64,000 nt of DNA, from assembly GCF_051903065.1 (NCBI RefSeq), contig NZ_CP178438.1; one strand, 5' to 3'. This document shows, piece after piece, positions 5,203-30,043 of the stretch (the stretch's first letter is position 1; each line of letters opens with the position of its first letter). The notes under the pieces were generated by a model. It searched no databases, was not told the DNA's origin, and saw only the letters and a program-made list of their open reading frames with translations. The stretch comes from Escherichia coli. GTDB lineage: Bacteria; Pseudomonadota; Gammaproteobacteria; Enterobacterales; Enterobacteriaceae. The position numbers and the translations under genes are program-made.

Positions 5203-6858
5203 TTAATCAGATTTAATCTGCGCGCGTGGTGGATACTTTTTCAGGATCTCCATATACGCGTGCATTTCGGTCTGTAGCGGTACACCCATCGGAATATGGC
5301 GCACGCCGATAGAGTCGCTCTCCTGCGGATCGGTGTACAGGTTAAACACCGACGATCCGGCTGTTTGCATTACTGTGCCGGTGAATCCACCCTGATATCC
5401 GCTCTGGGTATAAGCGTAAGGTTGCTGAATCAGGACGTGATACTTGAATTCATCCATACGCACAGCAGCGAGTTTACCGTTGAGGAAGTAGTGCTCGGCC
5501 TTACGGTTAGACTGACCATTTGTTCCCAGGAAGAAAGATGTCTGGTCCACACCATCGATAAAGGTGGTTTTCGGCACTAAATTCGCCACTTTCGCGCCAG
5601 GATGCCCTGCCAGATCCAGCGCGGTAGGGAAGAGATCTGCCAGATCGACAATACCGTCAGATTTACGCGGTTGGATCATCCCTTTCCAGTACACGAAAGT
5701 CGGAACGCGAACGCCGCCTTCCCAGGTAGATCCTTTCGCACCACGGAACGGTGTGCGTCCGTGCGGCGGTACTTCGGCTTCCGGTCCGTTATCGGAGGTA
5801 AAGACAATCAGCGTGTTATCAAGCTGACCGTTTTTCTCTAGTGCTTTATACAGATTAGCGAACACATCGTTCATTTCCACCATGCAGTCGCCATACGAGG
5901 TGCGTGCCGGAGAGCTACCCGCATATTTGGCGTTCGGGTAGTTATCGAAGTGACAGCCGCGAGTGCCGTAATAGAGGAAGAAAGGCTTCTCACTCTTCGC
6001 CATCTTGTCGAGGAACTTAACGCCATATTCCATCCAGCGTTGATCCAGATCTTCCATATATTTCGGCGTAATGTCGGCAATGGCCTGTTGTTCGCCGCCG
6101 CGCACCGCATGAACGTCATCTTTGCTAAATGGTAATTGCTTGATGTATTCAGAACGGTCCGGACTCAGGGCCACTTCCGGATTGACGTGAACGTCGCGCC
6201 ATTCGGTGTACATATCAGACACCGAGTTAAAGCCACGGAAATCATCAAAGCCAACGTTCTGCGGCTGCGACTCTTTGTTTTCCCCCATATGCCATTTCCC
6301 GATGGCCTGAGTGACGTAGCCCTGATCGTGCAGCAACTGCGGCAGCGTGGTTAACCCTTGCAGCCCGCCCGGTTGCCCGTACATTGGCGGCATCAGAATG
6401 CCGTGGTGGATGGAGTATTGTCCGGTGAGAATGGTGGCGCGGGTTGGGGAAGAGCTTGGTTGAGAATACGCCGAAGTTAAAATCAGCCCCTGGCTGGCAA
6501 CGGCGTCGATATCTGGTGTAGGGTTACCCACCGCCACGCCGCCACCGTTAAAACCGACGTCCATCCAGCCCACATCGTCCAGCAAGAAAACAACCACATT
6601 CGGTTTCTTACCGGTTTTTTTCTCAAGTTCTGCCAGCTTCTGCTGGGTTTCTTTATCCTGCGCCGGATGCTGCATTACTGGCATCATGTTGTCGGCAATA
6701 GTGGTCGCCGGTTTAACCAGATACTGGTTTGGGTGATCGTATCCGGCAAAGCCTTTGCGTGCGGTGGCAGTTGAAGGGGTATCTGCTGCGCTGGCCATGA
6801 GAGGAAGAGCGGCGGCGACAGCAACAACAAGAAGTTTGGGTGAAAACGAAAATTCCAT
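5203..6858 (-). CDS. aslA: Arylsulfatase-like protein with signal peptide, 551 aa; Ser-type sulfatase signature
   Basis: N-terminal signal peptide ([15 protein letters not shown]); sulfatase signature S-x-P-x-R-xxx-L-T-G present as [11 protein letters not shown]. Confidence 0.85.
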
Positions 6859-7282
6859 GCAAAATGCTCCGGTTTCATGTCATCAAAATGATGACGTAAT
6901 TAAGCATTGATAATTGAGATCCCTCTCCCTGACAGGATGATTACATAAATAATAGTGACAAAAATAAATTATTTATTTATCCAGAAAATGAATTGGAAAA
7001 TCAGGAGAGCGTTTCCAATCCTACCTCTGGCGCAGTTGATATGTAAGGCAGGTTTATTATATCGCGTTGATTATTGATGCTGTTTTTAGTTTTAACGGCA
7101 ATTAATATATGCGTTATTAATTGAATGAATTTTATCATTCATAATAAGTATGTGTAGGATCAAGCTCAGGTTAAATATTCACTCAGGAAGTTATTACTCA
7201 GGAAGCCAAGAGGATTACAGAATTATCTCATAACAAGTGTTAAGGGATGTTATTTCCCGATTCTCTGTGGCATAATAAACGA

Positions 7283-7489
7283 GTAGATGCTCATTCCATC
7301 TCTTATGTTCGCCTTAGTGCCTCATAAACTCCGGAATGACGCAGAGCCGTTTACGGTGCTTATCGTCCACTGACAGATGTCGCTTATGCCTCATCAGACA
7401 CCATGGACACAACGTTGAGTGAAGCACCCACTTGTTGTCATACAGACCTGTTTTAACGCCTGCTCCGTAGTAAGAGCAGGCGTTTTTTT
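7283..7489 (+). ncRNA. glmZ: Small RNA GlmZ (activator of glmS translation), about 207 nt including its intrinsic terminator
   Basis: No ORF; sequence GTAGATGCTCATTCCATCTCTTATGTTCGCC... matches GlmZ as I recall it; located in the aslA-hemY spacer; ends in hairpin aacgcctgctc/gagcaggcgtt plus T7; CATAAT -10 hexamer at 7271-7276. Confidence 0.8.
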
Positions 7490-7536
7490 ATGTGTCAGGA
7501 AGGCCCCGGAGGTGCTTGCCTCCGGGTGAGAAGGAA

Positions 7537-8733
7537 CTACTGTGGTGGGTTGTTCTGCAACGTTAACATCAAACCGTCGCGACGCATCGCTGCAGCTTCT
7601 TCCGGCTTGTGCAGTCTGTCCAGCGCGTCGGCAAGCCATGCGTAATCGTAGGCGTCCGGACGTTGTTTCAGCGCTGCGCGGAAGGCGAGCGATGCTTCCT
7701 GCCATTCTCCGTGCTTCATCAGTGACTGGCCCAGTGTGCTCCACAACAGCGGGCGATCGCCGACGTTTTTGATTTGCTGGCGCAGCACTTTTTCAAGCTG
7801 TTCAGGGTTATTGGTTTTCAGACGCGGGATCGGCAGCAGTAGGCGATCGTCATACTGGCGTTTCAGGCCGTCGATGATAATTTGCTGGGCAGTATCATGA
7901 TCGTCACATTCAATAAGATGTTCCGCCATTGCCACCTGCAACGCTACCTGATGACGCGTTTTCCGGCTTTGGTTTTTCCACCAGTTACGCAAACCTTCGC
8001 TACCGTTATCGGCACGCGCCTGATCCATCAGGCCAATCCATGCCTGTTGTTCCAGCATTGCACGATGTTCTTCATCACCAACATGGGCTTTCGCCATTGA
8101 TGGGATAATATCCAGCAGCGAACTCCATGCACCTGTGCGGATATACGCCTGTTCCGCCAGACGTAATACTTCCGGATGGCGTGGCGTAACTTCCAGCAGC
8201 TTATCCACGCCGTGGCGTGCAGCATGGTTTTCATTACGGGCCAGTTGCAGACGTACACGGGTGATTTCTACCGGAATGGTGTCATTGCCGGCCAGCTCCG
8301 CTGCGCGTTCCAGATGTTGGTTGGCGCGCGCTTCATCACCACGTTGTTGCGCGGCTTCGGCAGCCAGTAGATAGTTCACCACCGGTTGTTCAGCGTGATC
8401 GGCATTTTTCGCCATCAGCTTTTCAACTTGCTGATAATCGCCTTCCGCCAGTTTCAGCAGCGCCTGTTCGGTCTGCTTACGTGCACGGCGACGCTTACGC
8501 CCGACAAACCACCCACGGGTGTGCGCGCCAGTGCGGAAGATCCGCCGCAGTAGCCACTCAATGGCAAACAGCACTACCATCGCCAGAATCAATATGATCG
8601 CCAGGCCCGTGACGCTGGTTTCGATATTGTAGTTGTCGGTCTGGATCAGCACATAACCCTGATGACCGGCAATCATCGGGCCAACCACGATCCCCGCAAT
8701 CAGCAACACAAAGAGCAATAACACTTTTAGCAT
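7537..8733 (-). CDS. hemY: HemY (TPR-like inner-membrane protein of the hem operon), 398 aa
   Basis: ORF with N-terminal TM segment; last gene of the hemCDXY arrangement. Confidence 0.85.
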   Translation of the reverse strand: MLKVLLLFVLLIAGIVVGPMIAGHQGYVLIQTDNYNIETSVTGLAIILILAMVVLFAIEWLLRRIFRTGAHTRGWFVGRKRRRARKQTEQALLKLAEGDYQQVEKLMAKNADHAEQPVVNYLLAAEAAQQRGDEARANQHLERAAELAGNDTIPVEITRVRLQLARNENHAARHGVDKLLEVTPRHPEVLRLAEQAYIRTGAWSSLLDIIPSMAKAHVGDEEHRAMLEQQAWIGLMDQARADNGSEGLRNWWKNQSRKTRHQVALQVAMAEHLIECDDHDTAQQIIIDGLKRQYDDRLLLPIPRLKTNNPEQLEKVLRQQIKNVGDRPLLWSTLGQSLMKHGEWQEASLAFRAALKQRPDAYDYAWLADALDRLHKPEEAAAMRRDGLMLTLQNNPPQ

Positions 8734-8735
8734 GG

Positions 8736-9965
8736 TTATTCTCCTTGCGGCGCGGCTGCCGGAGTATCAGCTTGCGGTGCAGGTGCAGGTGCAGGTGCAG
8801 GTGCAGGTGCAGGTGCAGGTGCAGGTGCAGGTGCAGGTTTAGCTTCCGTTGTCTCCGCTGCCGGTTGTGCCAGCAGGTTACGCACGCGAGTCTGCATCAG
8901 TTTTTCCAGCATCGCCTGGCTTTGCAGGGTTTCCGGAAGATCCATCGAGATATTTTGCTGGCTTAACTGGTCCACCTCGTCGAGGAACGCTTTGGTGGTG
9001 GCATCATCAGTATCGTAGTAAGCACGTACCCAGGTGGAGACGTTCTCCAGCGCCTGGCGATAAGTCTCTTCCTGATGACGCGGTACAGCTTGTGCTGCGA
9101 CCAGCAGGCGAGAGCGAATATTTTCGCGCAGATAGATATCCTGATTTGGCGCTAACAGCGGTACGGCGGTGTCATCACGACGGCGAATCGTAATGAAGTT
9201 GTCCATAAAGTTCTGCCAGCTTTTTTGCAGATTGATACGCCATTCGCTGATGGAACTGGAAAGCTCTTCACCGTCGGAATCCATCGGCGAACCATCGCTG
9301 TCATTATCGGCCAGACGCAGGTTATCTACCTGATTTGAAAGCTGATTAAGCTTAAGGATGATGCCGTCATAATCCACCTGCGATACTGCAGAAAGGCTGG
9401 CGATATCATCGGTAATTGCCCGACGAACGGTAATCAAACTCGGGTCATTCATATCCGCCAGGCTGGCGTCTGCACTTTTCAGCAACGCTGCAGCGGTCGT
9501 GACGTCCTGATCGCTCCACAGCTTCCGTCCGGCGAGTTTCACCAGAAAATCGGCCTGAGCCAGCAGCCAGGTTTTAGCATCGCTGCCGGAAATGGTGGCG
9601 ACCTTTTGTTGGACTTCATCCAACTGTTTTGCCAGCGTTTCTTGCTGACGATTCGCCTGCTTAAGTTGTGCAGCTTGTTGCTTAATAATGCCTTCCAGCT
9701 CGGCTTTTTGGCTCTCCTGGGCTTTTTGCAATGCCGTCAGTTGGTTAGCCAGGGCATCGCTGGTGGCGGTCTGATTGACGGCCTGTTGTTTACCCCAGCC
9801 ATACAAACCGACGCCTGCCGCCAGAGCAATAGCGATAGCCACCGCACTGAGAATCAATGCGGTATTGTTCTTACTCTTTTTTTCTGTTGCGACAGGTTGT
9901 GACGTGGTGTCCACGGCCTCCCTGGTCTCTTCAACCACGGCGGAGGTTTTTTCTTGTTCCGTCAT
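8736..9965 (-). CDS. hemX: HemX (membrane-anchored protein with coiled-coil region and a C-terminal Pro-Ala repeat), 409 aa as called
   Basis: ORF 2 bp upstream of hemY; single TM; Gln/Ala-rich coiled-coil region; C-terminal (PA)n tract; product length may vary with repeat number. Confidence 0.8.
8776..8838. repeat. Perfect hexanucleotide tandem repeat (GGTGCA/TGCACC), about 10.5 units, encoding the (Pro-Ala)n tract of HemX
   Basis: ggtgcaggtgcaggtgca... read directly from the sequence. Confidence 0.95.
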
Positions 9966-15040: not shown

Positions 15041-15466
15041 TTAACCTACATACCTCGTCCCATTCCAACGCAAGATTGTATCCTCGTCGCATAAAAGGTT
15101 GTGTACGCCATGATTCTTTTCTTTCATCAGGCTGATTTTGCTACAAAAATAATCAATGTTAATTTTGGAGTTATCCGGGGTCATAATACTGCAAGCCATA
15201 GTTGGTGCGTCACTCGCGGTATATCCACAATCGTCTTTCCCGCAGGCAGCGGGAGGCGTGGAGGGTGAATACGTGCAGTTAAGCGTTTCGGAAATGCCAT
15301 CATCGTTAATGTCGAGGGGACGGCTAATCTCATCGCTGTCAGTGCCTAATGTGGTTGCATCCAGGATGACGTTTGGTTTTTGTATCTCGCTTGTGGCCGC
15401 GTAATTGAAGCTGCTTGCGGCCATTATGCCTAGAGCTATGCCAATCCGTAAGGCTATTTTTTGCAT
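15041..15466 (-). CDS. Small secreted cysteine-rich hypothetical protein, 141 aa (island gene A)
   Basis: ATG with GAGGA RBS upstream; N-terminal signal peptide (ALGIMAASSFNYAA); six Cys in the mature part; start overlaps the stop of gene B; AT-rich. Confidence 0.6.
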   Translation of the reverse strand: MQKIALRIGIALGIMAASSFNYAATSEIQKPNVILDATTLGTDSDEISRPLDINDDGISETLNCTYSPSTPPAACGKDDCGYTASDAPTMACSIMTPDNSKINIDYFCSKISLMKEKNHGVHNLLCDEDTILRWNGTRYVG

Positions 15467-16749
15467 CCTGGTTCCTCTGTAATAATCATAATGTCTCTGT
15501 TTTGAACTTCACGCACATTCTCTTCTCTGACACGAGTTTTCGCCGGACAGGGGGATGGCGTAATCCTGACCTCTGTATCGGTCCAGGTATAAACATTGCG
15601 ATCGTCATAAGCGAAGCGATCGTTTTTAATTAGCGGGCCGTTAGTTGGAATAATTTGCACGCTCTTTGACCGTAATTGGCGGATAAAGTAAACATGTTGT
15701 TTGCCGCCATTAAATGAGTTATCAATGACCAGGTCTGGCGAATCCAGCGGAATTATTTCAAGCTGGTCTTCACCAAAAGTCGATAATTTTGTTACATACA
15801 GACGATCTTTATACTGCGCAATATTGCCAGTAATCAGATGAAATTGTTCAGGTTCAATATCCGGTAGGTCTATCCACTTGCTCCACTGACGGTCGGGCGA
15901 GAGCTGTTTACGCCAGCGAACGCGACTTTCCCCCACTTCAAAAGAGACGTCATCATCTACGGGTATCGCTTTGCCAGATAATTGCCCAAAGGGATAACGA
16001 TGCAGACCATTGTTGTCGCGAAAAACCAGCAGTGAATGAGGTATCCAGCGAATTATCTCAAATGAGTCTGCATTCGCCGTAAGGTGAACGCCATTTAAAT
16101 AAATATTCTGCCCACTGCGGATAAGCAGATCATTGGAATACAAATTTCTGTTTACACTCATAAGACGTGGATTAATACCCCACCATCTTTTTTCTAATAC
16201 AGTAACATTACTGCTGCTCCCCTGACGTCGACCGGACAAATAGAGATTTTTACTATCCACCAGCGTGGTAGAGTTACCTTCGATAGCTTTTAGTGTCGCC
16301 AGATCAACACGTGACGCGCCGCTATTACTTTCGGTGCGCTGTCCATCAAAATAGAGGCTATATTTATCGACCGCGAAGCGGCCCATAGCCTGAAAGCTGG
16401 CAATATCGACAGTGGGTATTCCCGGTGGATTGCTAACGATTTTGCCACGCCAGAGAATAACGCGGCCGTCTGTCACCCAGTGGTATTCCTCATTTTTTAT
16501 GCTTATTTCATCGGTGGGTATATAGCCTTCCACTAACTCCCGCTCCCCGGATATATTTGTCACAAGGCGCAAATCGGCTCTGTTCATCTTCGGAAATTGG
16601 GCAATGATTTTCTCATCCTCCCCATAACCTTTACCGTAAGACATGACACCGTGATCATTGTAATAGTCGAACCCTATGGCCTGTACAGCAGGTGTCAGAA
16701 ATGTGTGCCCCAACAGGATGAGTGCAACTGTGATTATTTGACCATTCAT
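15454..16749 (-). CDS. Secreted repeat protein, DKNYY-like family, 431 aa (island gene B)
   Basis: Signal peptide; repeated motifs DKYSLYFDG, SKNLYLSG, GQNIYLNG, ANADSFEII; paralogous to the upstream 502-aa gene; ATGA overlap with that gene's stop. Confidence 0.8.
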   Translation of the reverse strand: MNGQIITVALILLGHTFLTPAVQAIGFDYYNDHGVMSYGKGYGEDEKIIAQFPKMNRADLRLVTNISGERELVEGYIPTDEISIKNEEYHWVTDGRVILWRGKIVSNPPGIPTVDIASFQAMGRFAVDKYSLYFDGQRTESNSGASRVDLATLKAIEGNSTTLVDSKNLYLSGRRQGSSSNVTVLEKRWWGINPRLMSVNRNLYSNDLLIRSGQNIYLNGVHLTANADSFEIIRWIPHSLLVFRDNNGLHRYPFGQLSGKAIPVDDDVSFEVGESRVRWRKQLSPDRQWSKWIDLPDIEPEQFHLITGNIAQYKDRLYVTKLSTFGEDQLEIIPLDSPDLVIDNSFNGGKQHVYFIRQLRSKSVQIIPTNGPLIKNDRFAYDDRNVYTWTDTEVRITPSPCPAKTRVREENVREVQNRDIMIITEEPGCKK

Positions 16750-18254
16750 TTTGTCGCCTCATTGCGCGGGGCAGGAATAAATTCGCCGTCATCGGTAATT
16801 TTTCCGTCCAGATATCCCGTTTTGTAATTTACCCCGTAGCCATATCCCGAATGTTGTTCCTTCCAGATTAAGCGAACTTGTTTCGGATCAGCGGTGCGGT
16901 ATCGCCAGAGCTGCGCGCCATCAAAGCTGTAAACGTAGCGGTTATCGCGGGCATACCATCTGCGCAAAAAGGGATGGTCATTAAGATGGGCTTCGCGTTC
17001 ATCCGGAGAACGGTTATCCAGTAAGATCAGCGGTCCGTCAGATTCAAACACGTGTAAACCGGAATGGTATGGCCACCCTTCGGCACGCGTAAGTAAATAG
17101 CCGTGGCGTTTCCCGGCGTTGAAACGTTTGTTGATAATAAGATTGGGATCATCAAGTTTCACGATCTCCAGCTTGCGGTCACCAGACTCTGTTTCGATGA
17201 TGGTATAAAGCGAGTCCTGATACTGTGCGACAGCATCACTGATGGGGTGAAACTGTTCCGGATCGAGTCCGGGTAATTCTTCCTGTTTACAGTCAGGCCC
17301 CTGACGCCAGAACACTTTCTTTTCCAGCAGAGAAAAATCCAGACAGTGCTTTGTTAAATCTTCATCCCACGCCAGATTTTCCTTGTCGAGGACTTTACGC
17401 TGCAGCCCGTTTTTATCACGCCAGGTCAAGAGTGAGCCGGGCATCCAGCGCACGACGGAAAAAGTGTCCGGGTCGGCATCAAGCTGTTCGCCGTTGATCA
17501 GGATTTTGGTTCTTGTACGAGCCAGGGTATCCCAGGGGCCAAATGGCATAGCCACACAGGGATTAAACGCGGTAGAAAACTTTCCTCTTTGATCCCATGA
17601 CTTTTGTGCCAGCACACGGAAACTCTCGGGGTCAGCGAGGCGATGCCCATCGACATATAAGAAATTAGCGTCACGTAATATCAGCCCCAGTAAGTCAGGA
17701 TCCCAGGGAGGCCGGAATTCCACCTGATGCAGTGTTTTGATATCTACGCTATTTCCCCCGCCATTGTCATCGGTGCGCTTGCCTTCGAAATAGAGACTGT
17801 GTTTATCTGCGGCAAAATCACCCCATGCCTTGAACGAGGCGACATCGACGGGAGGTTTGTCTGGCGGGTTTTGCACAACTTCACCCGCGTAGAGGATATT
17901 GCGGCCATCGCTATGCCAGGAGTAATGAGGATACCAGGCTTGTGCGCCTTCATAGAGGTAGTCGGTTGTTAGATCAGTCAGAGGTGGTTCTTTATTCCAT
18001 TCATCTTGTGTTGTTGGGTCTATTAATAAATTGGGTAAACGGCGCAAACTCTTGTAATTCACGTCAGGTAGAGAAAGATTTGTTTCTTTATAAGGGCGCA
18101 GGTACACCACGCCTTTTCCCTGTTTCTGGTAAATATTATGTTCAGGTGCATCAAGCCGACATCCCCATGCCGACGATAAGAACAATGAACAAGCCAACAA
18201 ACAAACCACATTGCGATAGTGCATAAAGCCATCCTGGCGCGAGGTGTTGATCAC
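16746..18254 (-). CDS. Secreted repeat protein, DKNYY-like family, 502 aa as called (island gene C)
   Basis: GTG at 18254, or ATG at 18224 giving MHYRNVVCLLACSLFLSSAWG... signal peptide; motifs DKHSLYFEG, DANFLYVDG, ADPESFRVL, ADPDTFSVV; similar to gene B (e.g. NPPDKPPVDVASFKAWGDFAADKHSLYFEGKRT vs NPPGIPTVDIASFQAMGRFAVDKYSLYFDGQRT). Confidence 0.8.
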   Translation of the reverse strand: MINTSRQDGFMHYRNVVCLLACSLFLSSAWGCRLDAPEHNIYQKQGKGVVYLRPYKETNLSLPDVNYKSLRRLPNLLIDPTTQDEWNKEPPLTDLTTDYLYEGAQAWYPHYSWHSDGRNILYAGEVVQNPPDKPPVDVASFKAWGDFAADKHSLYFEGKRTDDNGGGNSVDIKTLHQVEFRPPWDPDLLGLILRDANFLYVDGHRLADPESFRVLAQKSWDQRGKFSTAFNPCVAMPFGPWDTLARTRTKILINGEQLDADPDTFSVVRWMPGSLLTWRDKNGLQRKVLDKENLAWDEDLTKHCLDFSLLEKKVFWRQGPDCKQEELPGLDPEQFHPISDAVAQYQDSLYTIIETESGDRKLEIVKLDDPNLIINKRFNAGKRHGYLLTRAEGWPYHSGLHVFESDGPLILLDNRSPDEREAHLNDHPFLRRWYARDNRYVYSFDGAQLWRYRTADPKQVRLIWKEQHSGYGYGVNYKTGYLDGKITDDGEFIPAPRNEATK

Positions 18255-18333
18255 GATACTGCCAGCAGAACATAAATCCTCACACGTAAGCGTAATTCTC
18301 GCGGCAAATCGTCACTTTTCAGAATCCATAAAG
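18163..18333. repeat. Copy 1 of a 171-bp direct repeat (promoter/leader/signal-peptide module), covering the 5' end of gene C
   Basis: About 93% identical to 19245-19415 at a constant offset of 1082 bp (ccccatgccgacgataa...cacttttcaga). Confidence 0.9.
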
Positions 18334-18590
18334 GTCATTGCTATTTTCTGATAGTTGCTGGGGTAAACGTGATGTTTTCATTCACGATATAAATACGAGG
18401 TACTGCGCCATGGTGTGACTGATCACGTTAAAATGTGCCGGGTTGACGCCGGGAAGGGGTTCAACATGCGACTCTGCCCCCGTTGCCTACTTTATTGTCT
18501 TTCGCGAGTTGTACCCATGTTCCACCACTGGTATCTAACATTCTCCACATTATTACGCTTTCTGCCGAATGTGATTTTTATAGAAATCTA

Positions 18591-19145
18591 TCAATTCATT
18601 TTCCCTGTGCCATAAATTTTATCCTTCACATCCTGCCGAACGCGGGTCTTGTACCCCCCGTTGTGAAGATCTTCATACGGAGAAAAAGAATCTTTACTCC
18701 ACCCCAGCAGCACTTTATCGCCAGGCATAAAATGCACATGCAGAAAATCTTCTCCCCATTCTCTTTTGGGGAGAGGTAACGTCATATTCCGTTTCTCCAG
18801 ACGCATTCCAGCATTATACTGTGTACGAGTAGTACTTAATGTCCAGATAACCTCTGCAGTATCCCCACTGACATCACCACAACAGGTTGTTGAACCTCCA
18901 CCATTTGCAAAAGCATTCGCGCCCGCCACGCCGTTAACACTGAATCCCAGTATCGGACGGTCAATTTCACTGTGGATTTCCAGAATCACTCCACCTCTTG
19001 GACCTCCCCATACTGCCTGCCCTATATTCCACAACACGACCAGTACTGGAACGACAATTAACGTCCGCCATACCCAGCGCCCCCAGCGGGCATAACCGCG
19101 CGTAAGCTTTTGGTCAAATTTTTCCAGTTGGGTAAATAGCCCCAT
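18591..19145 (-). CDS. DUF3304-like membrane-anchored protein, 184 aa (island gene D)
   Basis: ATG with AGGGA RBS upstream; N-terminal TM segment (WRTLIVVPVLVVLWNIG); motifs GFSVNGVAGANAFANGGGSTTCCGD and LHVHFMPGDKVLLGW resemble DUF3304 proteins as I recall them. Confidence 0.6.
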   Translation of the reverse strand: MGLFTQLEKFDQKLTRGYARWGRWVWRTLIVVPVLVVLWNIGQAVWGGPRGGVILEIHSEIDRPILGFSVNGVAGANAFANGGGSTTCCGDVSGDTAEVIWTLSTTRTQYNAGMRLEKRNMTLPLPKREWGEDFLHVHFMPGDKVLLGWSKDSFSPYEDLHNGGYKTRVRQDVKDKIYGTGKMN

Positions 19146-25172: not shown

Positions 25173-26090
25173 TTACTTAGCGCACTTCTTCACATCAATA
25201 TTCCAGTTAGCACCAGACGCAACCTGATGTTTCTGCGCGAAATTATCCATATTCAGCGCCACGGAAACATTCAATAAGCTGTTCAGATACACCATCGGCT
25301 GACCTTCCGGCACATCGCCGAAGCTTGCGACATACGGCATTTTCCCTTCGTATTTTTGCTGGGAACCTTCGGAAATGGTTACACACAACGTGTCGTTGAG
25401 TTTGATTCCTGCCTGATTCAGCAACTCGTCGCTGATATTGCTCCAGACGTTGCCGTACTGAATATCGAGAATCGGGATATTGCCCTTCACTTCACCTTTT
25501 GTTGCTTTGGCTTTCTGATAAGAAAGTTCGACAACTTTTGCCGGAAGCTCTGGCCCCACCTGTTCGAACGTGATCGCTCCGGAAGCCAGGCGTGCACCGG
25601 TGTAGGCATACACGTCACGACCGTGGAAGGTATATGACTTTTCGGAACCTTTCAGGCGGTTGGTTTTTTCATCGATTTGCCGGACGCTCTCAATACCCAG
25701 CGATTCCGCCACCAAAGTGAGCGTACCGTTATCCGGTGAAACGAAGTATTGACCGTTTTTGGTTTTCAGCACTACCGATTTACGGTCTGTACCTACACCT
25801 GGATCGACCACGCTAACAAACACCGAACCTTGTGGCCAATAACTGGCGGTCTGATACAGGCGGTAAGCGCCTTCCCAGATGTTATACGGTGGAATTTCGT
25901 GTGTTAAATCAAAGATTTTAAGATTATGGTCAACACCGAATGCGACCCCTTTCATCGCCGAGACGGCACCATCTTTCAGGCTAAAATCAGTTTGTAAAAT
26001 CAAAGCGTTATCCGCATAAGCGGATGATGATCCCAGACACGTTAATAAAAATAACGTTGCGAGCGTTTTTTCATTTTTGTTTCCCTTCAT
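25173..26090 (-). CDS. Signal-peptide-bearing SAM hydroxide adenosyltransferase family protein (DUF62, fluorinase/chlorinase-like), 305 aa
   Basis: N-terminal signal peptide (LATLFLLTCLGSSSAYA); family motifs TDFSLKDGAVSAMKGV, VDPGVGTDRKSV, SPDNGTLTLV, FHGRDVYAYTGARLASG, YGNVWSNI align with fluorinase FlA as I recall it. Confidence 0.75.
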   Translation of the reverse strand: MKGNKNEKTLATLFLLTCLGSSSAYADNALILQTDFSLKDGAVSAMKGVAFGVDHNLKIFDLTHEIPPYNIWEGAYRLYQTASYWPQGSVFVSVVDPGVGTDRKSVVLKTKNGQYFVSPDNGTLTLVAESLGIESVRQIDEKTNRLKGSEKSYTFHGRDVYAYTGARLASGAITFEQVGPELPAKVVELSYQKAKATKGEVKGNIPILDIQYGNVWSNISDELLNQAGIKLNDTLCVTISEGSQQKYEGKMPYVASFGDVPEGQPMVYLNSLLNVSVALNMDNFAQKHQVASGANWNIDVKKCAK

Positions 26091-26156
26091 TTATCTGATG
26101 ATTTTCCAGCGGTGTAGCCAGCCCCAGTTTGTCTGGCCTCCTCGAGTGTACAATGC

Positions 26157-26921
26157 TTAACCTTTCCGCTCGACGGAAATCATGGTGACAAAAGGATAGC
26201 GTTGCCACGGGATTGCCCCGCCTTTCATATACATATGTGAAATCGTGCCATCAAGATTAAGCAGCTGCTCAACGTTCAGTTTCGCTTTGGCATAACAGGC
26301 AAAATCATAAAAATTTGTCGCCTGCTGGCTCAACAAAAACACGGCATTCCCATGTTTATTAATCCCAACACCGTTACGAATTTTACGTGAGGCGACGTTG
26401 GGATGAATACGCGGATTAATTACACTGTTTTCCATCAACATTGGCCCTGACTGCACCGCAAACTGAATCTCTTTACTGGTTTTGAAGGCATCCAGACGAA
26501 CGATGCCGACTTTATCTCCCGCGACATAAAACACGCCGCCAGGACTGATAAAGAAATTCCCTTCACCTGAAGCGAGATTTAACGCCACCTTCTGCTGACC
26601 GTTTTCGATGTACAAACCGAGCGGCGCATAGCTTTCATCATAGATGCCGCCGTTCATCGCCATCTGCACCTGACCGTGACTATTAATATCCGCCAGCAGA
26701 GCATGTAACGTTCCCCACGCTTCGCCATTGGCTTTTTGCCAGTACATTTTCACCCGCTCTGTTTGAGGATTAACGGTATACGCCTGTACGGTCAGCGTTG
26801 GATCTGAGAGTGCGCAATCATCAGCGGCAACAGCAAACAAGGGAAGTAAGGTGAGAGTGAGAAAAATCCGTTTGAGATTCAAGGTGATCATTCCTTTACC
26901 AATGAGTAGCCGATGCGCCAT
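26157..26921 (-). CDS. yigE: YigE (DUF2233 family), 254 aa, secreted
   Basis: Signal peptide; position between uvrD and corA. Confidence 0.8.
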   Translation of the reverse strand: MAHRLLIGKGMITLNLKRIFLTLTLLPLFAVAADDCALSDPTLTVQAYTVNPQTERVKMYWQKANGEAWGTLHALLADINSHGQVQMAMNGGIYDESYAPLGLYIENGQQKVALNLASGEGNFFISPGGVFYVAGDKVGIVRLDAFKTSKEIQFAVQSGPMLMENSVINPRIHPNVASRKIRNGVGINKHGNAVFLLSQQATNFYDFACYAKAKLNVEQLLNLDGTISHMYMKGGAIPWQRYPFVTMISVERKG

Positions 26922-27290
26922 TATAGGTCCTGGATGTGGGATTTTTTTATCCTGTTAGCGACCTTGACGAGTACCAAAAAGCGCGAAGTTCAACTATTGT
27001 TCTGTGGTGTTCTGTTGCGTGTTGACGGCAAAATTTTGCTGGCGTAACATGCGCGCACGATCACTCTAAGAGGACATTCGCCTTGGACACACCCAGTAGA
27101 TACTGGCTCACTATCCTGTCATCCAGGATCAACTCCTAAGGCTATCCCTTTTTGCTGATAGCCTTAGCGGTTGTCAGCGACCTCAATTTTTCCCGTCGCG
27201 CTGAGTCAGGCTGTTTAATGGTCTGAAACCCAATTTGTTTCTGTGTGCCCACCGAACTGTCCGATATTTTAAGCATTGGGAGTCCCGGTC

Positions 27291-28241
27291 ATGCTGAGCG
27301 CATTTCAACTGGAAAATAACCGACTGACCCGGCTGGAAGTCGAAGAGTCACAACCCCTTGTAAATGCAGTATGGATTGATCTTGTCGAACCGGACGACGA
27401 CGAGCGACTGCGCGTACAATCTGAACTTGGCCAGAGCCTGGCAACCCGCCCGGAACTGGAAGACATCGAAGCATCGGCCCGTTTCTTTGAAGACGATGAC
27501 GGCCTGCACATTCACTCCTTCTTCTTCTTTGAAGATGCGGAAGATCACGCCGGTAACTCCACTGTGGCATTTACCATCCGTGATGGTCGTCTGTTTACTC
27601 TGCGTGAGCGTGAACTGCCCGCTTTTCGTCTGTATCGTATGCGTGCCCGTAGCCAGTCGATGGTAGACGGTAACGCCTACGAGCTGCTGCTGGATCTGTT
27701 CGAAACCAAAATCGAACAGTTGGCAGATGAAATTGAAAATATCTATAGCGACCTGGAGCAATTGAGCCGGGTGATTATGGAAGGGCATCAGGGCGATGAG
27801 TACGACGAGGCGCTCTCCACGCTGGCGGAACTGGAAGATATCGGCTGGAAAGTGCGCCTGTGTCTGATGGATACCCAGCGCGCTCTCAACTTCCTGGTGC
27901 GTAAAGCGCGTTTACCGGGTGGGCAACTGGAGCAGGCGCGTGAAATCCTGCGAGATATCGAATCCCTGCTGCCGCATAACGAATCCCTGTTCCAGAAGGT
28001 GAACTTCCTGATGCAGGCGGCAATGGGTTTTATCAACATCGAGCAGAACCGCATCATCAAAATTTTCTCGGTGGTATCCGTCGTGTTCCTGCCGCCAACG
28101 CTGGTTGCTTCCAGCTACGGGATGAACTTTGAGTTTATGCCAGAACTGAAGTGGAGTTTCGGCTACCCAGGCGCGATTATCTTTATGATCCTCGCGGGCC
28201 TGGCACCGTATCTGTACTTTAAGCGGAAGAACTGGTTGTAA
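27291..28241 (+). CDS. corA: Magnesium/cobalt transport protein CorA, 316 aa
   Basis: Start trimmed to [12 protein letters not shown]; C-terminal TM pair with YGMNF motif. Confidence 0.9.
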
Positions 28242-28254
28242 AAAACGAGAGCGG

Positions 28255-28278
28255 TGGCTTAGTCTGGCTAAGCCACCT
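28255..28278. terminator. Candidate bidirectional terminator hairpin between corA and yigF
   Basis: ggtggcttag tctg gctaagccacc; flanking A-run and T-rich sequence are weak. Confidence 0.45.
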
Positions 28279-28283
28279 GTTAT

Positions 28284-28664
28284 TCAAAGGCTCCAGGTAT
28301 TTAACCCTTTTACCTCTTTCTCATAGAACCATTTGTTCGTGTTAACAGCAACATAGGCTGCTACGGCAATTCCCAGAATGTTAACGCCAATTAATGCACC
28401 AACAAATAGAGATAGAATGCCAAGTAATAGAACTATAATTGCTTTTTTCCATAAGCCCAGAACAAATAAATAGATCCAGGAACAGAAGAAAGCAATGAAA
28501 TTCATTTGAATAGTTAATCGTTGTCTTACTTTTAATGCTTTAAATGCTGCTTTATATTCTGGTGTTGCTCCCCAGAATCCAGGAAAGCCATGTTGATCAT
28601 AAAAATTAAATCGGTATTTCCATTTTTCACTTAATGAACCATCGTTCATATATTCCTTACTCAT
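28284..28664 (-). CDS. yigF: Inner-membrane protein YigF, 126 aa
   Basis: Start trimmed to MSKEYMNDGSL; two TM segments; AT-rich. Confidence 0.75.
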   Translation of the reverse strand: MSKEYMNDGSLSEKWKYRFNFYDQHGFPGFWGATPEYKAAFKALKVRQRLTIQMNFIAFFCSWIYLFVLGLWKKAIIVLLLGILSLFVGALIGVNILGIAVAAYVAVNTNKWFYEKEVKGLNTWSL

Positions 28665-28677
28665 AAATACTCCATAA

Positions 28678-29058
28678 CTATTGTTTTGATGAATCAGTAG
28701 GTGCAAGCATTAGCATACTGAAAGTGGAAAAATAACAAATCAAAAAAATCATCGAACCATTGCCTGAACAGGCAAAATCTTCGGCTATCATTGTGATGAT
28801 AGAGATGATATATACTGCTAATGTACCAAAAACATAAGTTTTTATATAGATGAAACCACTATCACGGAGTCGCTGGCAATTCATGTTGATGACGAGATAA
28901 TGGAGTACGATGGTAGAGACTATAACAAGAAAACCTACTTCCCCATCGTTAAAAAAGATAATAAGAAAGGCAAAAATGAAATTTATTAAAATAAATGAAA
29001 ATATATATCGGCGTCTGGAAATCTTACCGTTAGATGTTGGGATAAACATACGTAACAT
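28678..29058 (-). CDS. yigG: Inner-membrane protein YigG, 126 aa
   Basis: Start trimmed to [11 protein letters not shown]; multiple TM segments; AT-rich. Confidence 0.7.
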
Positions 29059-29152
29059 AAATTTTACATCCTTGTGTGAGTCTCCTGTCAGCATGGCAAT
29101 ATGCCCACTCTCATACAAGAGTCGGCATATTTTTTCAGAATATATTTATTTT

Positions 29153-30043
29153 TTATTTGGACGTTCTACGCTGCGTATAAATCGCATCCATCACAAAAAT
29201 TGCCAGCGCCACCCAAATAAAGGCGAAAGTCACCATCTTATCGGCACCCGGTTTTTCACCATAAAACGTCACAGCCAGCAGGAACATCAGCGTCGGGCCA
29301 ATGTACTGGAAAAAGCCTAACGTTGAGAGACGCAGGCGCGTGGCAGCGGCAGTAAAACACAACAGCGGTACGGTAGTGACAATACCGGCGGCGATCAGCA
29401 GTAAATTCAGCGACATCGGGTTTTGCCCCATATGGCTGGTTGAGCTGTCGGCAATAGCAAACAGGTAAATCGCCGCCACGGGCAGCAGCCACATAGTTTC
29501 GATTAACATGCCGGTTTGCGCTTCAACGGCAATCTTCTTGCGTACCAGACCGTAGAAGGCAAAACTAAATGCCAGCCCCAGCGCGATGATCGGCAGTGAA
29601 CCAAAAGTCCAGAGCTGAACCAACACGCCACATATCGCCAGAATCACCGCCAGCCATTGCATCCGGCGGAATCGCTCGCCGAGGAAAATCATCCCCAGCA
29701 CAATGTTCACCAGCGGGTTAATAAAGTAACCAAGGCTCGCTTCCAGCATATGGTGATTGTTCACCGCCCAGATAAACAGTAGCCAGTTGCCGCCAATCAG
29801 CACGGCAGAGACTGCCAGCATAAAAATTTTCTGTGGCGTCTGAATCAGCGTTTTTAAATAGGACCACTGGCGGCAAATGCTCATCAGCACCACCATAAAG
29901 AAAAATGACCAGATCACGCGATGCGTCAGGATTTCATCGGCGGGCACGTAGTAAATCAACTTGAAGTACGCTGGGGCTATACCCCAAATAAAATAAGCGG
30001 CAAGAGCGAGTAATACGCCCTGCCGCGTTTGTTTTGCATCCAT
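29153..30043 (-). CDS. rarD: DMT-superfamily permease RarD, 296 aa
   Basis: 10-TM EamA-like protein; length and sequence match. Confidence 0.85.
   Translation of the reverse strand: MDAKQTRQGVLLALAAYFIWGIAPAYFKLIYYVPADEILTHRVIWSFFFMVVLMSICRQWSYLKTLIQTPQKIFMLAVSAVLIGGNWLLFIWAVNNHHMLEASLGYFINPLVNIVLGMIFLGERFRRMQWLAVILAICGVLVQLWTFGSLPIIALGLAFSFAFYGLVRKKIAVEAQTGMLIETMWLLPVAAIYLFAIADSSTSHMGQNPMSLNLLLIAAGIVTTVPLLCFTAAATRLRLSTLGFFQYIGPTLMFLLAVTFYGEKPGADKMVTFAFIWVALAIFVMDAIYTQRRTSK

Follow-up and report, generated by a model that had tools for sequence, protein, structure and literature searches.

The AT-rich yigG–yigF pair of Escherichia coli as a two-gene cassette in a polymorphic slot between corA and rarD

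Main finding

The adjacent yigG and yigF genes of Escherichia coli are probably, though by no means certainly, an H-NS-silenced accessory two-gene operon that is exchanged by recombination and encodes a two-protein unit of the inner membrane. The base composition, gene structure, selection, pairing, position, slot haplotypes, and allele sharing on which this explanation draws come from the present analysis, and H-NS binding and silencing are taken from the literature. That yigF/yigG is AT-rich and H-NS-silenced is already known, and the published interpretation agrees in outline with the preliminary description of this DNA, made from its letters. What is new here is only that the pair occupies a chromosomal slot holding different small gene cassettes among strains.

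Gene layout and base composition

The stretch of DNA analyzed (64,000 nucleotides; hereafter, the window) is a segment of the E. coli chromosome with wecG at one end and hemG at the other. Its yigF–yigG region is 100% identical to that of strain ECNB21-M121 and 98% identical to that of K-12 derivatives; the strain is not K-12 itself, and the allele of the window is of the K-12 type. The preliminary description had placed two 126-aa ORFs between corA and rarD, and their coordinates proved exact (Table 1). Transcription runs in the order rarD, yigG, yigF, converging on corA. A ribosome-binding site for yigG (AAGGA) lies within the spacer between rarD and yigG, and yigF starts 13 bp downstream of yigG with its own ribosome-binding site (GGAG). 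The terminator scan predicts no terminator on the minus strand of the 94-bp spacer, and read-through from rarD is therefore possible; the 84 bp of the spacer closest to rarD are retained in all slot haplotypes, including genomes without yigFG. At the other end of the pair, the GC-rich hairpin between corA and yigF is likely a bidirectional intrinsic terminator, which is kept in a second allele class (described below) and, by eye from sequence, in E. whittamii. The slot in the window contains the two genes only, with no integrase, no tRNA, and no flanking direct repeats around the AT-rich block, in which no structured RNA or RNA genes were detected either.

Table 1. Positions of the features of the corA–rarD region in the window
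Feature	Position	Strand	Description
corA	27291–28241	+	Flanking gene, convergent with yigF
GC-rich hairpin between corA and yigF	28253–28277		Found by terminator scan on both strands; RNA fold, -17.5 kcal/mol; z, -3.7
AT-rich block	28255–29245 (approximate)		100-bp windows below 42% GC
yigF CDS	28284–28664	-	Second gene; 126 codons and stop; DUF2628 membrane protein
yigG CDS	28678–29058	-	First gene; 126 codons and stop; inner-membrane protein with four predicted TM helices
Fragment "yigG 1.2"	28758–28907	-	Carries sigma-70 promoter inside yigG, in sense direction, toward yigF (PMC7229825)
yigG remnant in DUF3289/DUF943 strains	28972–29030 (approximate, read off alignment)	-	L005, L006
rarD–yigG spacer	29059–29152	-	94 bp; carries yigG ribosome-binding site
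rarD	29153–30043	-	Flanking gene, upstream of yigG, co-directional

Base composition was assessed over the 55 annotated CDSs of the window, comparing yigF and yigG with the other 53. The GC contents of the two genes (0.346 and 0.331, respectively) are far below the mean of the 53 genes (0.528; standard deviation, 0.029; z, -6.2 and -6.7), and the same holds for GC3s (0.231 and 0.286 versus 0.559; standard deviation, 0.054; z, -6.1 and -5.1). First codon positions are likewise GC-poor (GC1 z, -3.5 and -4.9), and second positions somewhat so (GC2 z, about -2). The interval 28284–29058 has a GC content of 0.337 (z, -5.0 against all 775-bp windows), and the lowest-GC 775-bp window of the 64 kb (0.326) overlaps yigF–yigG, the next non-overlapping one having 0.405. 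The AT-rich block spans the whole gap between the stop codons of corA and rarD, together with ~90 bp of the rarD 3′ end. Because GC3s is normal (0.55–0.63) in other membrane-protein genes of the window (rarD, rhtB, rhtC, tatC, trkH, bioP, and thrP), the bias is not explained by membrane amino-acid composition alone. The codon-bias index of Karlin, B(g|window), is high for the pair (0.66) and equally so for lptM (0.66), and is non-discriminating because short genes inflate it; a window-referenced CAI was also computed. An AT content well above that of the host, as is characteristic of xenogeneic DNA, is thus found in the pair (GC, 0.33–0.35 versus 0.52 for the window). The observation of an AT-rich yigF/yigG pair is real and strong, and confirms the claim that the two genes are AT-richer than their neighbors (GC z, about -6; GC3s, 0.23 and 0.29 versus 0.56); a codon usage equal to the average, which the preliminary description had named as the finding that would speak against it, is not what we see (GC3s z, -5 to -6).

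Published data on H-NS binding, promoters, and phenotype

The locus forms Figure 1 of the "promoter island" paper by Panyukov & Ozoline 2013 (PMC3661553), whose Table 1 gives a 663-bp promoter island at yigF/yigG. According to the same paper, yigF/yigG is H-NS-bound in all ChIP studies considered, and was predicted to be horizontally transferred by Nakamura et al. and by Lawrence and Ochman. The H-NS ChIP data proposed as a check in the preliminary description were therefore already published, with H-NS bound in all studies (PMC3661553). Warman et al. 2020 reported a promoter within yigG, one of six located within H-NS-silenced, horizontally acquired genes, which is repressed by H-NS and depends on an AT-tract and on R451 of sigma-70 (PMC7229825); the primers used in that study map uniquely to the window at 28882–28907 (- strand) and 28758–28782 (+ strand). 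In the IPOD-HR study of the Freddolino laboratory (bioRxiv 2020.01.29.924811), a small EPOD with low transcript levels lies over yigF–yigG–rarD and is presented as an example of a silenced operon. The AT-rich block corresponds to the published promoter island and to the H-NS/EPOD-covered region. A simple sigma-70 scan gave 2 promoter-like sites versus 4.0 in shuffled sequence, and therefore fails to recover the promoter island of the literature, whose definition relied on different software.

With regard to phenotype, deletion of Salmonella "yigG" has been reported to reduce surface attachment and lower chlorine tolerance (PMC3579871). The identity given for "yigG" in that paper (82%) is nearer to that of YigF (84%) than to that of YigG (57%).

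The YigF and YigG proteins

YigF is a member of the Pfam family DUF2628 (PF10947), matching over residues 17–117 with 40.6 bits (cut-off, 23; E-value, 3.7e-10). Among 16 homologues ranging from Escherichia to Pseudomonas, L69, G70, L71, W72, K73, K74, N110, Y114, and K116 are invariant, corresponding to the (F/I)LGLWKK membrane motif and the C-terminal N-x-x-x-Y-x-K motif of the family, and an N-terminal K-W-x-x-R-F motif is invariant as well. The AlphaFold2 model of YigF is confident (pLDDT, 87.7; pTM, 0.80), showing a charged, helical N-terminal part of ~50 residues followed by hydrophobic helices.

The yigG product matches the YigG equivalog NCBIfam NF008474 (PRK11371) with 254.4 bits, above the cut-off of 217, and was modeled by AlphaFold2 with a pLDDT of 86.5 and helices at residues 15–38, 42–66, 72–92, and 100–117. 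An invariant R63-x-R65-D66-S67-G68 loop and clusters of Lys/Arg are located on one side of the model, and Asp/Glu residues and a nearly invariant Cys on the opposite side; the side with the basic residues and the R-x-R-D-S-G loop is presumably cytoplasmic, judging from the model. The match of YigG to Pfam DUF805 (PF05656) falls below the threshold (17 bits; cut-off, 25.7; E-value, 0.0085), and eight of the ten YigG-family members match DUF805 at E-values of 0.1 or less (best, 3e-5). E. coli YhaH and YhaI belong to DUF805. With 29 clusters in a profile search of 1.84 billion representative proteins, the YigG family is very small, and its profile does not reach the bulk of DUF805. YigG is best called a narrow enterobacterial family resembling DUF805.

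The two proteins are not paralogs of each other, as judged from the absence of a BLASTP alignment between them and an hhalign probability of 0.2%. A phage or defense origin also found no support, neither protein having a PHROG or PADLOC match, and no relative with a solved structure was found for either. The literature on DUF805, DUF2628, YhaH, and YhaI yielded no functional data, in agreement with the preliminary description, which assigned no function to YigF or YigG.

Conserved pairing and position across genera

Next to the corA 3′ end, a yigG-like gene with a DUF2628 gene immediately downstream of it was found in E. coli, E. whittamii, Escherichia sp. E1V33, Superficieibacter electus, Atlantibacter subterranea, Enterobacter sp. 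E76, two Kosakonia species, Salmonella Typhimurium, and a genome of 57% GC (L104), and the pair lies between rarD and corA in most of these taxa. This survey covers the YigG-family genes whose neighbors were examined, with the adjacency to corA read wherever the contig reaches that far; the E. albertii contig starts at yigF, and the comparison there comprises yigF and corA. In contigs with a different rarD side, the pair still adjoins corA, and yigG and yigF overlap by 4 bp. The sole exception to the pairing among the YigG-family genes examined is the distant copy of O157-type strains, which lacks yigF; the pairing is therefore not absolute. The phylogenetic distribution, which the preliminary description had suggested as a check, accordingly combines presence of the pair in ~55% of E. 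coli (see below) with a position next to corA that is conserved across genera. Because of the conserved pairing, YigF and YigG are taken to work together, and we infer that they form one functional membrane unit.

Two other placements of the pair were considered and rejected. Contigs L100 and L101, which seemed to provide an independent genomic context, also end in the corA 3′ end. Carriage on plasmids is unsupported, in that the syntenic E. coli and Salmonella matches look like pieces of chromosome filed as plasmids, including "plasmids" of 4.9 Mb and a 96-kb Salmonella record with recQ–pldA–rarD–corA–uvrD. More distant DUF2628 matches occur on large Pantoea replicons, and the more distant DUF2628 genes (Pseudomonas, Pantoea, Proteus, and others) are located elsewhere, with no YigG-like neighbor and with host-like GC3.

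The polymorphic corA–rarD slot in E. coli

A survey of 5,426 complete E. coli genomes showed that the region between corA and rarD is polymorphic. The yigGF pair, counting both allele classes, is present in 2,961 genomes (~55%), among which ~554 carry the second, albertii-like allele; in the remaining ~45% the pair has been lost or replaced. The O157-type slot content (1,431 genomes) comprises a very distant member of the YigG family (128 codons) and, on the opposite strand, an ORF of 104 codons, without yigF; it also includes a corA 3′ fragment with a DUF3289/DUF943 pair after it. A further ~1,000 genomes have the DUF3289/DUF943 pair together with a remnant of the yigG 5′ end, in which ~60 bp near that end persist by rarD, and the 39 bp beyond the remnant, including the yigG start codon, are deleted. 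Therefore, yigG was present before its replacement by DUF3289/DUF943. According to Geller et al. 2024 (PMC11148199), DUF3289/DUF943 are a colicin-M-like type VI effector and the membrane protein that confers immunity to it.

Tandem arrangements of the two cassettes, with 3′ fragments of corA and rarD between them as recombination scars, are present in Atlantibacter, Enterobacter sp. E76, and some E. coli, and in E. whittamii yigGF is followed by a lone ORF that is DUF943-like by eye from sequence. The yigGF slot has none of the marks of a mobile element or a classical genomic island, there being no integrase or transposase, no tRNA target, and no flanking direct repeats. Homologous recombination within the conserved flanking sequences is therefore the best explanation for the exchange of cassettes. 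IS elements are found in the slot of some strains as secondary insertions only.

Allele classes, selection, and exchange

E. coli has two deeply diverged yigGF allele classes, one of which is common to E. albertii. Between the window and E. coli 81009, which differ in allele class, the flanking genes are ~97% identical (dS, 0.08–0.12), whereas yigF and yigG are 74.5% and 80% identical (dS, 1.19 and 0.64, respectively), the identity falling from 97% to 75–80% exactly at the borders of the cassette. The dN/dS ratios between the two classes are 0.16 for yigF and 0.23 for yigG; therefore, both genes have been kept as protein-coding genes by purifying selection. Between E. albertii and E. coli 81009, in turn, yigF is 99–100% identical at the DNA level, whereas the adjacent corA is 89–95% identical. 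The K-12-type YigF shows 84% identity to the Salmonella protein and 83% to that of Superficieibacter, but 70% to the second E. coli allele. Since these alleles do not follow the species tree, exchange between species is required. Patchy distribution and disagreement with the species tree, which also characterize xenogeneic DNA, are hence both seen in the pair (2,961 of 5,426 genomes; sharing with E. albertii; YigF closer to Salmonella). YigG evolves much faster than YigF, with identities between genera of 45–57% and 83–84%, respectively.

Synonymous sites are saturated between genera, and the GC content of the pair is still 0.33–0.39 except in Kosakonia and L104, whose copies are less AT-rich (0.42–0.47), with GC3 host-like in Kosakonia (0.54–0.59) and intermediate in L104 (0.44–0.60). 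These data divide the claim of an "old horizontal acquisition" in the preliminary description into two parts. A horizontal origin fits the foreign-looking composition, the absence from ~45% of E. coli, and the published predictions of a foreign, H-NS-bound locus. A single acquisition that has not yet drifted to the host composition does not fit the fixed position across genera, the saturated synonymous sites, and the alleles that depart from the species tree; a low GC content despite saturated synonymous sites means that one old acquisition followed by slow drift describes the data poorly. The history of the pair is therefore one of ancient residence in the slot, with alleles and cassettes still being exchanged through recombination in the flanks, which are conserved. 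The persistent AT-richness could result from repeated import from an AT-rich donor, from selection for silencing, or from mutation bias in a silent, rarely recombining gene.

Alternative readings

Three other readings of the locus were weighed. According to the first, yigGF serves in interbacterial competition as an orphan module of the immunity (self-protection) type, whose proteins guard the inner membrane or periplasm against a competitor toxin and whose deep allele classes are kept by frequency-dependent selection. The occupation of the same slot elsewhere by a type VI effector and immunity protein (DUF3289/DUF943; PMC11148199) points in this direction, as do the tandem cassettes described above and the DUF943-like ORF (by eye) next to yigGF in E. 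whittamii. Deep allele classes, each under purifying selection and shared across species, are the pattern typical of immunity loci, and the much faster evolution of YigG than of YigF between genera (45–57% versus 83–84%) fits as well. However, sharing of a slot is guilt by location only, and the toxin gene that would adjoin a cognate immunity gene is missing next to yigGF, both in the window and in most genomes. The immunity families in PADLOC, PHROG, and Pfam give no match to either protein; the supplementary tables of the effector–immunity survey list neither DUF2628 nor DUF805; and the more distant DUF2628 genes are found in ordinary chromosomal contexts. We therefore regard an immunity function as an unlikely reading.

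In the second reading, to which we give a similarly low probability, yigF and yigG are native genes of ancient vertical descent that are weakly expressed and have become AT-rich through mutation bias, relaxed codon selection, and amino-acid composition. The synteny of the pair by corA in at least five genera is consistent with vertical descent, as is the finding of no mobility signatures. The host-like GC3 in Kosakonia (0.54–0.59) and the match of the more distant DUF2628 genes to their host GC3 also speak for it, and the low GC1 (z, -3.5 and -4.9) and GC2 (z, about -2) reflect a protein rich in Phe, Ile, Asn, and Lys. On the other hand, GC3s of the two genes is 5–6 standard deviations below that of the window genes, membrane-protein genes included. 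Vertical descent also does not account for a pair that only some E. coli genomes carry, the near identity of the E. albertii yigF to that of one E. coli lineage when their flanks differ by 5–11%, and a K-12-type YigF that resembles its Salmonella counterpart more than the second allele of E. coli. The presence/absence pattern, the allele sharing, and GC3s together require horizontal exchange.

The third reading, that yigF and yigG are decaying or non-functional, H-NS-silent remnants in the course of loss, is very improbable: silencing under laboratory conditions (literature), loss or replacement in ~45% of E. coli genomes, many truncated variants in protein databases, and a copy in Enterobacter sp. 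E76 that looks frameshifted near its 3′ end would be in keeping with it, but dN/dS is 0.16–0.23 over a very deep divergence, the 126-codon ORFs are annotated as intact in all genomes sampled from the 2,961 that match over the full length and are also intact in five other genera, the motifs are conserved and both AlphaFold2 models confident, and attachment and chlorine phenotypes have been reported for a deletion in Salmonella (PMC3579871).

Proposed mechanism

In the explanation that we prefer, a silenced accessory operon exchanged by recombination, yigG–yigF is situated downstream of rarD in the same direction, converging on corA, and encodes two small proteins of the inner membrane that are unrelated to each other. 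The two are inherited and exchanged jointly; for this reason YigF and YigG would most likely act together in the membrane. YigG is modeled as a four-helix, DUF805-like protein with a conserved, putatively cytoplasmic R-x-R-D-S-G loop, and YigF as a DUF2628 protein with a predicted cytoplasmic helical head and the conserved GLWKK membrane motif. Based on the literature, the high AT content would lead H-NS to coat the yigGF DNA in E. coli and to keep the pair largely silent, and the same AT-richness would create the many spurious promoter-like sites described as a "promoter island". Lacking mobility genes, the pair is probably moved and replaced by homologous recombination in the corA and rarD flanks, which would give rise to alternative cassettes across strains and to yigGF alleles common to several species. 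As for the role of yigGF, our best guess is one related to the envelope or to competition and needed only under some conditions.

Significance

As a case of AT-rich, H-NS-silenced accessory genes, yigG–yigF is a textbook-style example identified once more, which matters little by itself, and the comparative data added here show nothing out of the ordinary for accessory genes of this species. In a more novel reading, yigG–yigF would be a variant of a polymorphic competition locus by corA, namely, a two-protein inner-membrane protection module, a proposal that we consider improbable. If it were true, the allele classes would be older than the species that carry them and would be kept by frequency-dependent selection, with alleles passed among Escherichia, Salmonella, and relatives via recombination in the flanks; AT-richness would have been selected so that H-NS silences a potentially harmful membrane module until it is needed; and a first function would be provided for the DUF2628/DUF805-like pair.

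Three side results are of modest value. First, a "foreign" locus can be ancient, positionally fixed, and AT-rich through complete synonymous turnover. Second, the corA–rarD gap is a recombination-driven cassette slot that yigGF shares with a type VI effector/immunity pair. Third, the conserved pairing, the motifs, and the swappable allele classes offer a testable handle on two y-gene families.

Comparison with known systems

The closest known counterpart is the pair itself, since yigF/yigG is a published example among the promoter islands, EPODs, and H-NS-silenced genes of K-12 (Panyukov & Ozoline 2013; Singh 2014 / Warman 2020; IPOD-HR). There is no difference in kind from the locus treated in that literature, the allele of the window being of the K-12 type and 98% identical; the K-12 studies use the locus as an example of silencing, and cassette polymorphism and conserved pairing are not discussed in them. 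At the level of the proteins, YigG resembles DUF805 in being small and polytopic, with basic residues at the N-terminus ahead of helix 1 and with helix 2 followed by an R-x-R-D-x-G loop, but YigG of the window scores below the Pfam threshold. YigF shares the GLWKK motif of DUF2628 and scores above the threshold, whereas most members of this family (Pseudomonas, Pantoea, and Proteus) are 134–143 aa long, have a host-like composition, and are without a YigG-like partner. Finally, although the DUF3289/DUF943 genes show no sequence or fold relationship to YigF/YigG, and yigGF has no toxin-like partner, they occupy the same corA–rarD slot in the same orientation as a two-gene cassette with a small membrane protein, and they likewise fall into diverged allele classes (89% versus 97–100% identity).

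Alternative contents of the corA–rarD slot

In place of the yigGF pair, O157-type content occupies the corA–rarD slot in 1,431 of the 5,426 complete E. coli genomes surveyed. In the O157:H7 strain F7386 (locus L097), this content comprises two small ORFs on opposite strands, the 128-codon one of which encodes a very distant member of the YigG family (22–24% identity), and a near-identical protein, P0177, matches the YigG family profile at an E-value of 1e-5. Loci that hold both yigGF and the DUF3289/DUF943 cassette (L010 and L019) have duplicated 3' ends of the flanking genes between the two cassettes, and the same kind of inter-cassette fragment is found in L097 and L098. These fragments look like scars of recombinational cassette insertion. 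The lone ORF in Escherichia whittamii looks, from a reading of its translation, like a gene for a putative DUF943 immunity protein, and it stands without an accompanying DUF3289 effector gene.

Secondary insertions have also been observed in the slot. In the APEC strain E18006 (L003), rarD is adjoined by an island that carries blaTEM-1 as well as IS1 and IS1182-family elements, and in strain HS30-1 (L004), yigF is truncated by IS1B, with yigG and most of rarD gone.

Features of the compared loci and of the window (64,000-nt E. coli stretch)
Feature	Locus	Position	Strand	Remarks
Duplicated 3' fragments of corA and rarD	L010	5429–5910		Between yigGF and DUF3289/DUF943 cassettes
Duplicated 3' fragments of corA and rarD	L019	4432–4907		Between yigGF and DUF3289/DUF943 cassettes
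Duplicated corA 3' fragment	L097	4059–4205
Duplicated corA 3' fragment	L098	3562–3708
128-codon ORF	L097	4230–4616	-	E. coli O157:H7 F7386; yigG strand; unannotated in the record
104-codon membrane-protein-like ORF	L097	4817–5131	+	E. coli O157:H7 F7386; sole annotated gene at the site
Lone ORF	L016	4378–5023		E. whittamii; between yigF and corA
yigG and yigF counterparts	L099	3027–3881		Salmonella
AT-rich stretch in the aslA–hemY intergenic region	Window	6817–7591
hemX	Window	8736–9965	-	Length-variable
lptM–cyaY slot	Window	15041–19145	-	Second variable slot; one gene for a DUF3304 protein, three hypothetical
SAM hydrolase/halogenase-family gene and yigE	Window	25173–26921	-	GC 0.47, below neighbours
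ysgD	Window	27083–27139	+	18-codon leader ORF upstream of corA; TTG start

Other features of the window

The gene content of the lptM–cyaY slot is strain-dependent. In the window, two of the slot's three hypothetical genes match a DKNYY-family Pfam entry, and the genes of the slot have GC contents of 0.45–0.49; in the E. coli locus L005 it contains one 2,058-nt gene and a DUF3304 gene, and in L006, also E. coli, a DKNYY pseudogene is all that it contains. These two loci also have hemX genes of unequal length, and the window hemX is 12 nt longer than that of the otherwise near-identical strain ECNB21-M121 (1,230-column alignment versus a 1,218-nt gene). The SAM hydrolase/halogenase-family gene is missing from this position in HS30-1, where uvrD is followed directly by yigE. 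The leader ORF ysgD, annotated in Salmonella as YsgD/CorL family, is kept upstream of corA in every locus examined. A stretch in the aslA–hemY intergenic region, with a GC content of 0.405, ranks second for AT-richness among 775-bp stretches of the window.

Plasmid records and the Salmonella genes

Three PLSDB records (NZ_CP134663.1, NZ_CP141089.1, and NZ_CP047533.1), two of them 4.9-Mb E. coli and one 96-kb Salmonella, look like chromosomes or chromosome pieces filed as plasmids; the Salmonella record carries recQ-pldA-yigI-rarD-yigG-yigF-corA-uvrD. For its 'yigG', a Salmonella study (PMC3579871) gives 82% identity with the protein of E. coli K-12, whereas the identities measured here between the Salmonella and E. 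coli proteins are 57% for YigG and 84% for YigF. Because the stated value lies close to that of YigF, the gene deleted as 'yigG' in that study may be the counterpart of yigF, or the comparison may have been done differently there.
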